DNA of 63,942 nucleotides, counting the filler, from an uncultured bacterium (GTDB lineage: Bacteria > Hinthialibacterota > Hinthialibacteria > Hinthialibacterales > Hinthialibacteraceae), in the NCBI GenBank assembly GCA_964449065.1. It is 3 parts of 3 records of this genome, joined end to end, with 100 filler letters (N's around TTAATTAATTAA, not from the genome) between each part and the next. Parts side by side here need not be neighbours in the genome. Positions count along the whole stretch, not along the records: positions 1 to 22,090 come from CAYVAZ010000042.1; 2 more parts are not named here. The stretch is one strand, 5' to 3'. Position numbers and translations under genes: made by a program. Positions 1,915 through 4,648 of the stretch are shown here, piece by piece (position 1 is the stretch's first letter; each line of letters starts with the position of its first letter). Below the pieces are notes generated by a model, which worked only from the letters and a program-made list of their open reading frames with translations, was not told the origin of the DNA and searched no databases.

Positions 1915-2679
1915 ATGGCCGAAGTCACTGTGAGTGAAGGCGTAACCGGAGCAGAGGCTCCTGTCGTCGAGGACCAGACCGCTCGCCCCGAATGGCTCCC
2001 CGAGAACTTCAAAACCCCGGAAGACTTGGTGAAGTCCTACAAGGAACTTCAGAGCAAGCTTTCCGCGAGTGGCGGTGAAGACAAGGGTGAAGAGCAGCAG
2101 GAAGACGCAGAGCCGCTTGCCGCTGAGGAAGAGGCCCCGAAGGAAGAAGAGGGTCAGTCCATCGAGGACTTCCCCGAGAACCTTCAAGAGTTCGCCAAGG
2201 AGTTCTCCGAGACTGGTGCCCTGACCGAAGACAGCTATGCGAAGCTGGCCGAGATGGGCTTCTCGAAGTCTGTCGTGGACTCCTACATCAGCGGGGTCGC
2301 TGCTGCTGCTCAGGACGTGACCGACGATGCGTTCCTCTCGGAAGTCGCTGAGGGCTATGGCGGTGTCGAGAAGCTGCAGGAGATGATGGCTTGGGGTGCC
2401 GAGAACCTCACCGAGGCTGAACTCGAACTCTACAATCAAAACGCTGTCAAGAAGTCCACCGCCAAGATCGCTATCGAGATGCTCAAGGCCAAGTTCGAAG
2501 CAGCCGAAGGGTTCAAGCCCGCACGTCGCCTCGAAGGTCTCGGGACGCCTCCGACCAAGGGAGCCGCCTACGAGTCTTGGCAGGAAGTCCAGCGGGACAT
2601 GGCCGACAAGCGCTACAAGGAAGGCGATCCCGCCTTTCATCGGAAGGTCGAGGAGAAGCTTCGGCGTTCCAACCTGTAA
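1915..2679 (+). CDS. capsid assembly (scaffolding) protein, T7 gp9-like
   Basis: Acidic protein with RPEWLPENFKTPEDLVKSYKELQSKL and C-terminal MADKRY...DPAFHRKVEEKL; lies between portal and capsid. Confidence 0.92.
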   Translation: MAEVTVSEGVTGAEAPVVEDQTARPEWLPENFKTPEDLVKSYKELQSKLSASGGEDKGEEQQEDAEPLAAEEEAPKEEEGQSIEDFPENLQEFAKEFSETGALTEDSYAKLAEMGFSKSVVDSYISGVAAAAQDVTDDAFLSEVAEGYGGVEKLQEMMAWGAENLTEAELELYNQNAVKKSTAKIAIEMLKAKFEAAEGFKPARRLEGLGTPPTKGAAYESWQEVQRDMADKRYKEGDPAFHRKVEEKLRRSNL

Positions 2680-2698
2680 GAAGGAGAACCCAAACCCA

Positions 2699-2767
2699 AT
2701 GACTCGTTTCCCAACGTGGTTCTATTGGAAGGAGGTGATCCAGTATCTCCCTGCAGGGCACTGCTAG
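2699..2767 (+). CDS. candidate 22-aa micro-ORF (MTRFPTWFYWKEVIQYLPAGHC)
   Basis: AAGGAG at 2681-2686, ATG 2699, TAG 2765-2767. Translation is not demonstrated. Confidence 0.45.
   Translation: MTRFPTWFYWKEVIQYLPAGHC
2729..2750 (+). promoter_or_regulatory. extended Shine-Dalgarno element (15-nt complement of the 16S rRNA 3' end) in a small hairpin
   Basis: AAGGAGGTGATCCAG (2729-2743) is the reverse complement of CTGGATCACCTCCTT. GGAGGT (2731-2736) can pair with ATCTCC (2745-2750). No start codon follows at RBS distance. Confidence 0.6.
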
Positions 2768-2801
2768 GGTTACCAAAAGTGTGCTCGTGTCTAAGTAGGC
2801 T

Positions 2802-2969
2802 GGCTGCTACGAAAAGGCAGTCCCCGGATGACAGTAACCGGGAATATCTTTTGAAATTAACGTGAGGTCTTACTTGATAGACCCGCAGACCAAAAGCAAT
2901 ACAGCTAATATACGCCTCGACCCGATACGTCGGATAATCTTGGAAGGTAGTTACGGTATTTCGAAGGTC
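2802..2969 (+). promoter_or_regulatory. structured 5' leader of the major capsid gene
   Basis: Consecutive stems GGCTGC/GCAGTC (2802-2822), CCCGG/CCGGG (2823-2842), GGTCT/AGACC (2866-2883) and a long imperfect stem 2888-2969 capped by CCGA-TACG-TCGG. Confidence 0.5.
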
Positions 2970-2999
2970 ATCTTTTCAATAGTTATATAGGAAAGCAAT

Positions 3000-3968
3000 A
3001 TGGCTAACGCAACTCCGAGCCGCCTTGGTATTATCAATGGCGTCTCTCCCTCCAACTATGAGCAAGAGAACGCCCTCTTCCTCAAGAAGTTCTCCGGTGA
3101 AGTCCTGACTGCGTTCAACGAGACGAACGTCATGAAAGACCTTCATCTCATTCGCACCATCGAGTCGGGCCGGTCGGCTCAGTTCCCCGCGACGTGGAAG
3201 ACCGGCGCCGGTTACCACACTCCGGGCAACCTGATCACGGGTGCCCAGTCGATCAAGCATAATGAGCGCACCATCGTCATCGACGATCTGCTCATCTCGG
3301 ACGTGTTCATCGCGAACATCGATGAGGCCAAGAACCACTACGATGTCCGCTCGATCTACTCGACGCAGGTCGGCGAGGCTCTCGCGCGTGTCTTCGACCA
3401 GAACACCATGCAGGTCGGTGTGCTCGCCGCTCGCGCTTCGGCGACGGTCAATGGTGGTTTCGGTGGCGGTGAAGTGACCGAAGCGGACGCCCGTACGGAT
3501 GGCAACAAGCTGGCCGCTGCGATCTTCGGTGCCGCGACCCTCATGGACGAGAAGGACGTTCCCGATACGGATCGTGTCGCCCTCGTCAAGCCCGCTCAGT
3601 ACTACACGCTGGTGCAGGCGAAGGACACCATCAACAAGGACTGGGGTGGTTCCGGTTCCTACTCGGATGGTTCGATCACCCGCATCGCCGATGTGGTCCT
3701 CCGCAAGACCAACCGTGTTCCCACGGCGAACGTCTCCCCCAAGCCGGGTGAGAACAACACCTACGGTGGCAACTTCCAGAACGTGGCCGCACTGGTCATG
3801 CACAAGAGCGCAATCGGCACCGTCAAGCTGATGGACCTGACCATGCAGATGACCGGCGAGGAATACGCTGTCATGTATCAGGGCACGCTGATGGTCGGCA
3901 AGTACGCGATGGGTCACGGCATTCTCCGTCCCGAGTGTGCGGTCGAGATCAACGTGACGGCCAACTAA
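3000..3968 (+). CDS. major capsid protein, T7 gp10-like
   Basis: ALFLKKFSGEVLTAF, RTIESGRSAQFP, HYDVRSIYSTQVGEALA, KYAMGHGILRPECAVEI; strongly biased codon usage. Confidence 0.97.
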   Translation: MANATPSRLGIINGVSPSNYEQENALFLKKFSGEVLTAFNETNVMKDLHLIRTIESGRSAQFPATWKTGAGYHTPGNLITGAQSIKHNERTIVIDDLLISDVFIANIDEAKNHYDVRSIYSTQVGEALARVFDQNTMQVGVLAARASATVNGGFGGGEVTEADARTDGNKLAAAIFGAATLMDEKDVPDTDRVALVKPAQYYTLVQAKDTINKDWGGSGSYSDGSITRIADVVLRKTNRVPTANVSPKPGENNTYGGNFQNVAALVMHKSAIGTVKLMDLTMQMTGEEYAVMYQGTLMVGKYAMGHGILRPECAVEINVTAN

Positions 3969-3990
3969 GGCTCTCTTTCAAAGACACTTT

Positions 3991-4022
3991 AGGGTCACCC
4001 TTAATTGGGTGGCCCTTTTTTT
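3991..4022 (+). terminator. intrinsic terminator after the capsid gene (T-phi position)
   Basis: AGGGTCACCC-TTAATT-GGGTGGCCCT followed by a T run. Confidence 0.9.
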
Positions 4023-4045
4023 CCTCCCAATACTTGGAGTATAAC

Positions 4046-4648
4046 GTGGTTCAACACAATACACCCCTCGACGAACTTGCAGCGGTTAACATTCTTCTTT
4101 CGGTGATTGGTGAACCGCCTGTGAATACTCTCTCCAATAGCACTTCTCCTGATGTTGTGATGTCCCGAGCCGTTCTCGGTGAGATCAGCCGCTCGGTTCA
4201 GGCACAAGGCTGGAACTTCAACAAGGAGTTCAATGTCGAGTTCACCCCTGACATCAACGGTGAAATGTCCGTGCCAAACGATGTCCTCAGGATCGAAGTC
4301 CGCAACAACCGATATGGCGTTTGGGACGTGATCCGCAGAGGGTCTCGCCTGTACGACCGTGGGGGCCACACATACACCTTCGATAAACCGTTGTGGGCCG
4401 AAGTGGTGTACCTTCGAGACTTTGCGGAACTCACCGAGAGCGCTCGTTATTACATAACAATCCGTGCAGCCCGCACTCTCTCGAACCGCGTGTCGCCCTC
4501 AAAGGTGGTCTACCAGTTCACCAAGGAGGATGAGAACTACGCCCGCGCTGCCTTCCTCGAAGAGAACGGGGACACTGCGAACCTCTCCATGCTCGATAAC
4601 GCCTCTTCGGCAAGGGTGATGGCTGGTCGCACAAGCAGGTGGACGTAA
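4046..4648 (+). CDS. tail tubular protein A, T7 gp11-like
   Basis: ELAAVNILLSVIGEPPVNTL, VQAQGWNFN, RLYDR, YYITIRAAR. Start placed at GTG 4046 (GGAG at 4036-4039), downstream of the terminator, not at 3935. Confidence 0.93.
   Translation: MVQHNTPLDELAAVNILLSVIGEPPVNTLSNSTSPDVVMSRAVLGEISRSVQAQGWNFNKEFNVEFTPDINGEMSVPNDVLRIEVRNNRYGVWDVIRRGSRLYDRGGHTYTFDKPLWAEVVYLRDFAELTESARYYITIRAARTLSNRVSPSKVVYQFTKEDENYARAAFLEENGDTANLSMLDNASSARVMAGRTSRWT

Follow-up and report, generated by a model that had tools for sequence, protein, structure and literature searches.

The window analysed here is a stretch of 63,942 nt from the assembly of an uncultured bacterium. Its first part (C42, window 1-22090) is a standalone phage contig in this metagenome-assembled genome, and the remainder (22191-63942) consists of other contigs of the same assembly with N spacers between them. 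The phage contig may be misbinned in the assembly. It carries a T7-like structural module in which a portal gene (189-1778) is followed by the scaffold and major capsid genes (Table 1), and the best named match of the capsid protein was Roseobacter phage CRP-125 (63%), with Roseobacter phages overall at 61-63%. No tRNA or tmRNA was found in the window and a sigma-70 promoter scan of positions 2500-4100 found none, while the search for a phage RNA polymerase (PF00940) gave no match in the assembly and likewise none in its control. A contig from the DNA run X2 covers 2692-3247 with zero differences and is possibly from the source sample; no RNA run carrying the window sequence was found.

Table 1. 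Coordinates of the features at the scaffold-capsid junction, in positions of the window.
Feature	Position	Strand	Remarks
Head scaffolding (capsid assembly) gene	1915..2679	+	ORF; phrog_1052 head assembly, E 6e-45
AAGGAG (2681-2686) and 22-codon micro-ORF (2699-2767)	2681..2767	+	Not a conserved part of the element
Extended Shine-Dalgarno	2727..2743	+	15 Watson-Crick pairs (2729-2743), 17 with one G.U, to the 16S 3' end
3' strand of predicted cage hairpin	2744..2750	+	Holds conserved AUCU (2745-2748); 2749-2750 shared with pseudoknot stem 1
Pseudoknot stem 1	2749-2753 paired with 2765-2769, then U	+	Stem 1 covaries in the family
Pseudoknot stem 2	2756-2761 paired with 2781-2786	+	Loop 3 is 2770-2780; arm-pair diversity in the family
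Separate conserved hairpin motif	2919..2939	+	About 60 nt 5' of the capsid start; loose pattern in relatives
T7-like major capsid gene	3000..3968	+	phrog_267, E 7e-81
Intrinsic-terminator-like hairpin at the end of the capsid unit	3991..4016	+	Position alone

Several further features surround the capsid start. The motif upstream of the capsid gene has a 4-pair stem whose arms co-vary among relatives, a 4-nt loop and a fixed tail, and its loose pattern was present in 25 of the 37 loci with a recognisable capsid start, window included (among them L001, L002, L021, L027 and L796-L798), with a similar one in the T7-like phage LUZ100 (L902, about 1394-1428). No Rfam model matched this motif, which is a candidate promoter or processing site. 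Two more hairpin-like inverted repeats lie 3' of the pseudoknot (2795-2853), and at the matching place LUZ100 has a hairpin ending at its mapped RNA 3' end T15. Marine T7-like relatives (L003, L007, L011, L014, L047 and others) have a conserved lysine/glycine-rich micro-ORF just after the scaffold stop, with its own ribosome binding site (RBS), between the scaffold and capsid genes and unrelated in sequence to the micro-ORF of the window. Position is what argues for the terminator-like hairpin behind the capsid gene, one such hairpin being found against 1.6 expected in shuffles.

The initial annotation placed upstream of the capsid gene a start-less, hairpin-caged Shine-Dalgarno (SD) of unusual length inside a micro-ORF, and every coordinate given for it proved right when re-checked. 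The 15-mer forms 15 Watson-Crick pairs with the 3' end of 16S rRNA, and 17 contiguous pairs, one of them G.U, were read by eye (2727-2743). No 16S gene was found in the window's own assembly, and the 16S 3' end was taken from a relative of the same order (L905), which may not belong to the lineage of the phage host. The 15-mer is single-copy in the window, with about 5e-5 copies expected in the 22-kb contig from base composition. Its core lies 51 nt past the scaffold stop and 269 nt 5' of the capsid start, and no ATG, GTG or TTG follows at RBS distance in the window.

The hairpin said to hide the GGAGGT core was recovered as a weak predicted structure (2731-2737/2744-2750, -7.6 kcal/mol against -27.2 for the perfect 15-mer duplex), but the 131-nt region folded no better than its shuffles (z 0.11) and the predicted partner of the SD differed in two of three folding contexts. 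An alternative bulged register, in which AUCU would be explained by perfect pairing, was rejected at -0.5 to -0.8 against -7.6 kcal/mol.

The 22-codon ORF is present as described: its ATG follows AAGGAG at a spacing of 12 nt, and it terminates 21 nt past the motif. According to the initial annotation, its translation would melt the cage, park a ribosome and tune capsid output in this phage. AAGGAG stands right after the scaffold stop, the ORF ends inside stem 1, relatives likewise carry a micro-ORF behind the scaffold stop codon, and the 12-nt spacing recurs at a possible ATG of the portal gene, all of which speak for such a device. It is nevertheless very improbable, as an RBS and start reading through the SD in frame were found in 2 of 95 non-redundant members of the motif family, the window being one of them; the micro-ORF of the relatives is unrelated in sequence and lacks the motif, and translation through the element would unfold the conserved knot described below. 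In LUZ100 a tRNA stands where the window has the micro-ORF, which, by its distribution, appears incidental to the element.

Motif family, pseudoknot and start-codon avoidance

The element of the window spans 2727-2786, beyond the extent first described, and includes after AUCU a pseudoknot (2749-2786) that was absent from the initial annotation. On comparative evidence it is one copy of a compact phage RNA element with a constant order of parts, namely the extended SD GGAGGUGAUCCA, a spacer of 1-4 free bases, AUCU and a predicted H-type pseudoknot.

A blastn search with the intergenic region matched only a 30-nt piece, in Pakpunavirus tRNA clusters, besides three Thermus records. The exact pattern AGGAGGTGATCCANTATCTC was found in 55 viral stretches against 4 for a tail-permuted control, and the set built on it, to which the window and two GenBank loci belong, comprised 58 sequences with 41 distinct contexts. 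With the SD part alone fixed, 29 of 112 distinct contexts had ATCT within the next 0-4 nt (a few of them are coding matches), against 18 of 896 background windows further downstream (among the matches listed). When this stretch was left free and a CCC...GGGT stem was required, ATCT was found directly 5' of the stem in 56 of 68 contexts and GTCT in 4 of 68, again among the matches listed. The wider pattern searches behind the family counts are samples of matches and not censuses, and the counts ignore the kinship of members, which are related to one another. Carriers include prophage-like contigs of gut bacteria, Streptococcus phages, the Pseudomonas myoviruses PAK_P1, PAK_P3 and PAK_P4 and the T7-like LUZ100, with variants in a roseophage and a Klebsiella phage, and plasmids gave no match to the motif.

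The Rfam comparison foreseen in the initial annotation was carried out, and no model covers the window element at its gathering score, CC2171 reaching 20 bits. With Rfam 15 at gathering score there were no matches in the window, and in 20 member loci the matches were confined to tRNAs and a single GP20-b. Known riboswitches and self-cleaving ribozymes were discarded, no Rfam 15 covariance model for them reaching threshold. A full-text literature search returned no description of the motif, although the supplementary lists of Weinberg 2017 and PMC10690425 (three files) lie outside its coverage and could list it; the consulted parts of PMC5737381, PMC10690425 and PMC5563952 do not describe it.

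The pseudoknot score of the window was equalled or beaten in 2 of 200 shuffles. In the family, stem 1 has mostly 3-4 pairs starting at the base after AUCU, with a U 3' of its second arm, loop 3 has mostly 3-5 nt and stem 2 has 4-9 pairs. A strict descriptor of this fold, composed after the exact-pattern contexts had been inspected, fitted 50 of 81 viral and 25 of 116 genomic contexts among the matches listed, against 5-6% of shuffles, and many of the remaining genomic matches without a knot are plainly coding. Among the matches listed, the 145 members have 103 different arm pairs in stem 2.

The covariation check suggested earlier was run on the pseudoknot stems. A whole-family MAFFT alignment left the stems unaligned, and counts were restricted to one length class of 25 rows, chosen on the first stem-1 pair and the U only and not on stem 2. 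In these rows two-sided changes were counted in 40 cells, where shuffles gave 17.5 (none of 500 reaching 40; the rows are related, so these are not probabilities), and covariation was 0.44 against at most 0.26 for slid partners, all slid registers being beaten. The whole structure exceeded 500 of 500 shuffles on three of five measures, the exceptions being the counts of pairs and of types. The second and third pairs of stem 1, in which 96% of cells are paired, alternate between C-G, G-C and U-A. Stem 2 has 60% of cells paired in a fixed register, and four of its five pairs change on both sides. The stems covary. The first C of stem 1 was present in 141 of 145 members among the matches listed, a near-invariance due in part to selection of the sample, since most search patterns fixed that C. 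A -1 frameshift signal would place a slippery sequence in a coding ORF between the SD and the knot; this candidate was rejected, as GGAGGU and stem 1 are only 11-14 nt apart and long ORFs do not contain 54 of the 62 members.

Variation within the SD mostly appears compatible with pairing to 16S, most changes keeping a wobble pair, although A-to-G is also the mutationally favoured change. When the extension was left free, nine matches were obtained from 8 of 251 genomes of one family, against one in the control: six restore the extension with A or G at position 12 (three with G), two are near variants from one genome, in which a U-to-C change breaks one 16S pair, and one is chance-like. At SD position 8, in the loop of the cage, the pseudoknot accompanied 18 of 35 matches with G, 2 of 15 with C and 2 of 24 with T; G is thus tolerated there, C and T hardly, as pairing with an outside partner would predict. 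The 16S tail of Bacteroidota has a variant form; matches with the corresponding T stayed at background (the 2 of 24 just given), and none of the 11 matches in 401 Bacteroidota genomes had a strict knot. One duplex prediction pairs AUCU with helix 45 of 16S. In Pseudomonas, helix 45 differs at the place where AUCU would pair, and Pseudomonas phages keep AUCU.

The conservation of AUCU, of the first C-G pair and of the U behind stem 1 is stricter than pairing with 16S would require. This strictness, together with the finding of no variant that tracks a divergent host 16S tail, is what would be expected if the 16S match were incidental and the motif served as a site where a protein or nuclease binds or cleaves, or as an RNA fold in its own right. 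Such an origin is scarcely probable, because a 12-13-nt match to the 16S tail, the avoidance of starts and the mostly wobble-compatible changes are most simply explained by ribosome binding, and no ribozyme or riboswitch model matched at threshold.

Canonical starts in the spacer of 145 members numbered 2 against 12.3 expected, among the matches listed, and none of 2000 shuffles came as low. The AUC frame has no conserved length or peptide: its median is 13 codons, and the medians of the other frames are 16 and 14 (n=95). A fixed-frame start at AUCU was discarded, the spacer varying by 0-4 nt with no conserved ORF. It is improbable, though less so than the two explanations weighed above, that the element is a weak real start or a peptide-less attenuator, in which the SD would put AUC (or GUA/AUA) in the P site, or 30S occupancy would cover stem 2 and so control a terminator. 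In most members AUC does lie 7-10 nt past GGAGGU, non-canonical starts behind extended SDs are used with about 10% efficiency in S. aureus (consulted part of PMC13009471), the related CC2171/rre RNAs initiate there, and stem 2 with its U-tract is terminator-like in 11 of 96 members. The AUC frame, the avoidance of canonical starts and the lack of a U-tract at stem 2 of the window all weigh against it.

Genomic placement and cultured carriers

Placement was examined in a flank sample of 85 of the 145 members with long flanks, reduced to 62 by removal of near-duplicates and including a few chance fits. The element was on the coding strand in 56 of 62 members and inside a long ORF in 8 of 62. An upstream ORF of at least 70 codons stops within -15..+10 of the SD in 29 of 58 members, 21 of these within -3..+1, and the next start lies within 42 nt of the knot in 15 of 56. 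A hairpin followed by a U-tract was found within 110 nt 3' in 13 of 96 non-redundant members, and stem 2 itself runs into a U-tract in 11 of 96; in the window no U-tract follows stem 2. The link to translation drawn in the initial annotation is therefore lost in its micro-ORF form but retained in another, that of the upstream stop codon.

A neighbour scan covered 52 annotated loci, the first set of which was unfiltered for the knot, and a head, packaging or lysis gene adjoined the element in 30 of them. The association with head genes was borne out, the scaffold gene lying directly downstream in 13 of the 52 loci and LUZ100 having the element at the same position as the window. A capsid-specific device, or one setting the scaffold-to-capsid ratio, proved too narrow, because the element is also found next to genes for holin/endolysin and for terminase/portal, within tRNA clusters and in one region free of genes, and is missing from closer relatives. 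None of 160 capsid-bearing loci (53-67% identity, some without upstream DNA) contained a 9-10-nt piece of the motif. Conservation at this position in related phages therefore failed among the closer capsid loci and held in LUZ100, and the absence from all 160 indicates that the element is dispensable for this phage group. In one locus (L125, 1556-1626) an Rfam GP20-b lies directly 3' of the element, before the scaffold gene.

LUZ100 is a T7-like Pseudomonas phage whose capsid is 51% identical to that of the window. Its variant lies 271 nt before the capsid start (269 in the window) and 14 nt after a tRNA-Asn, and has by eye a 3-pair stem 1, a 6-pair stem 2 and an A after stem 1. According to the consulted part of PMC10134795, the element is on the transcript that runs from promoter phi7 through the capsid gene. 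The consulted parts of PMC10134795 and PMC10204088 map RNA 3' ends just before the tRNA (T14) and shortly past the element (T15); T15 is given as 21029 in one paper and 21001 in the supplement of the other, was not predicted as intrinsic and shows a 74% coverage drop. As this drop falls about 66 nt 3' of the knot, many LUZ100 transcripts end before the capsid gene. Those parts of both papers contain no mention of the element.

In other cultured phages the setting differs. Pakpunavirus and PAK_P3 have the element in clusters of tRNAs and non-coding RNAs, and in PAK_P3 a putative promoter precedes it by about 45 nt and tRNA genes follow it. In the Klebsiella phage PCCM_KpPS2 a variant is antisense to both flanking genes, in a gene-free stretch ending in a terminator-like hairpin. 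The variant of roseophage DSS3phi2 lies between a stop and a terminator-like hairpin, and by eye an unannotated ORF ends on a UGA inside the SD.

Some of these records hold more than is annotated. Unannotated tRNA-like and other non-coding DNA adjoins the element in Pakpunavirus/PAK_P3 records (L081 1143-1556, L082 1143-1557, L903 810-890), and none of the tRNAs found with Rfam is annotated in the PAK_P1 record. The gene-free stretch of PCCM_KpPS2 (590 nt; L904 830-1390) has promoter-like and terminator-like signals opposite to both flanking genes and probably contains other structured RNAs besides the element.

The stop codons at the SD would fit an element that catches a ribosome just stopped upstream, with the knot blocking its scanning to the next start, so that the downstream gene is uncoupled or the ratio of late proteins is set. 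The 29 of 58 members with an upstream stop near the SD, the UGA in the SD of DSS3phi2 and the 15 of 56 with a nearby next start all argue for this role. It is unlikely as the general explanation, since no stop adjoins the element in the window (51 nt past the scaffold stop), in LUZ100 (after a tRNA) or in the tRNA regions of Pakpunavirus and PAK_P3, and the 5' extension of the SD by itself tends to create stop triplets.

The tRNA-associated copies could instead reflect a small RNA acting in trans: an RNA of about 60-130 nt, released by processing or termination, would bind 30S subunits (or maturing 16S at its 3' end) and, late in infection, take them away from host mRNAs. Such a role would suit the LUZ100 element, flanked by the 3' end of a tRNA and a mapped RNA 3' end, the Pakpunavirus and PAK_P3 copies, the antisense PCCM_KpPS2 copy and the 13 of 96 members with a terminator-like hairpin just 3'. 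However, most annotated members are inside late operons, late sequestration of ribosomes would be costly to the phage too, and rreB, when overproduced 20-fold and bound to 30S, did not slow growth, which its authors credit to an excess of ribosomes (consulted part of PMC5711450). A trans role is considered quite unlikely.

Proposed function and related RNAs

Beyond the motif, the predicted pseudoknot, the avoidance of start codons and the sense-strand intergenic placement, which the comparisons demonstrate, the start-less extended SD probably holds the small ribosomal subunit on the late transcript without making protein. That the element binds 30S is very likely by analogy with known RNAs. 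That it acts as a non-initiating 30S dock whose main purpose is the 5' protection of late RNA is put forward tentatively, at a little short of an even chance. Docking is suggested by rreB, which shows 30S docking, and shielding by STAB-SD. In the consulted part of PMC5711450, the 17-nt SD of rreB co-sediments with 30S, and a GUG to UAG change raises the half-life from 10 to 37 min; reviews (PMC7509114, PMC3997798, consulted in part) describe start-less SDs that stabilise transcripts and ribosomes that impede RNase E scanning.

In the proposed mechanism, a 30S subunit that is free or has just terminated would seed on the hairpin loop with its 16S 3' tail and displace the weak cage. Opening of the cage would free the C's of stem 1, so that docking and pseudoknot folding would favour each other. 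With no start codon, and with the pseudoknot at the place of A-site or entry-channel mRNA, the subunit would stay bound without initiating. The bound subunit and the knot would then block decay that depends on the 5' end (RNase J exonucleolysis, RNase E scanning), and downstream RNA, here the capsid message, would outlive the upstream part of the late operon.

A 5' shield of this kind agrees with the location of members ahead of genes for scaffold, protease, capsid and endolysin, or just past an excised tRNA, and we give this reading slightly less than half of our confidence. In some members there would be little downstream RNA to protect, because of a terminator-like hairpin (13/96) or a stem-2 U-tract (11/96). 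The RNA 3' end T15 of LUZ100, the antisense copy of PCCM_KpPS2 and the absence from the 160 closer capsid loci count against the shield as well. The location of half of the members at a stop codon argues against a 5' shield alone, fitting a role in 3'-UTRs equally well, and the keeping of AUCU over a perfect cage has no account in the shield reading. The dock or shield, insulator, small-RNA and weak-start roles are not mutually exclusive.

A bolder proposal, rather doubtful, is that the element is an RNA-only clamp of the ribosome: the SD would anchor the subunit, and the knot (AUCU, the first C-G pair and the U) would dock in the mRNA channel or the decoding centre, where it would mimic a codon-anticodon pair. 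It would lock 30S in a defined state that does not initiate, acting in cis where genes adjoin and in trans in the form of a small RNA excised from tRNA clusters. If this were true, phages would gain a protein-free handle on ribosome recycling. A comparable use of SD pairing and a pseudoknot is known from rpsO mRNA, where entrapment by S15 keeps 30S non-accommodated, the knot flanks a real start and a repressor protein is needed; the phage element differs in having neither a start nor a known protein.

The rreB/rreR small mRNAs of Alphaproteobacteria (consulted part of PMC5711450) and CC2171 (RF01867) resemble the element in having an extended 16S complement partly hidden in a predicted hairpin, and CC2171 is inferred to be the Caulobacter rre RNA. 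The CC2171 consensus agrees with window 2727-2749 almost letter for letter (E 0.031, 20.1 bits against a cut-off of 75). Against the 16S complement of at least 16 nt that defines rre RNAs, the window has 15 Watson-Crick pairs, or 17 with one G.U, to a 16S taken from a relative of the assembly that may not be the host's. In contrast to the element, CC2171 has a canonical start at a fixed position in 10 of 10 matches (an eleventh being off-pattern), where the window has GTA, and rre/CC2171 RNAs have an ORF of 14-30 codons (21-30 in the 10 CC2171 matches) on their own transcript, whereas the phage element lacks a conserved small ORF in any frame. The strict pseudoknot occurred in 1 of 10 CC2171 matches, while the phage element has the knot, a variable spacer and an avoidance of starts. 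Judged from these sequence differences, the window element is not a member of rre/CC2171. Expression of CC2171 has been validated, with no function given in the consulted part of 10.1101/2022.01.24.477521. In CC2171-like RNAs of Brevundimonas/Caulobacterales (L883, L502, L540, L549, L500, L508), two extra bases lie between GTG and the conserved UCUCAUUGUC; this two-base insertion shifts the peptide frame, which suggests that the RNA sequence may matter more than the peptide in these RNAs.

STAB-SD of Bacillus thuringiensis cry3A and other start-less SD stabilisers appear in the consulted parts of PMC7509114 and PMC3997798. STAB-SD is, like the element, a strong start-less SD upstream of a highly expressed gene and a proposed 30S roadblock against 5' decay. 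The window likewise has a strong SD without a start at RBS distance. As for a place in the leader of a protected mRNA, the LUZ100 copy is on the capsid transcript and some members have a terminator-like hairpin right behind. The phage element differs from STAB-SD in its much longer 16S complement, its cage and its conserved pseudoknot, and its carriers include phages with Gram-negative hosts, some copies lying in tRNA clusters; any stabilisation by it is proposed by analogy. The GP20-a and GP20-b motifs and other candidate RNAs (RF03003; consulted part of PMC10690425), upstream of phage GP20 genes, share the neighbourhood of the element; GP20-b is separate from it, as the L125 match begins past the element and no GP20 model matches the window.

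The element is thus widespread in phages and apparently uncatalogued, of the start-less SD kind and with the conserved pseudoknot as its new part. It defines a small, testable RNA family, with cultured carriers for which published transcript maps exist. If the element holds 30S, it would show how phages set late mRNA levels after transcription, and it would provide a start-less relative for the rre/CC2171 RNAs and a 60-nt stabiliser or insulator part.
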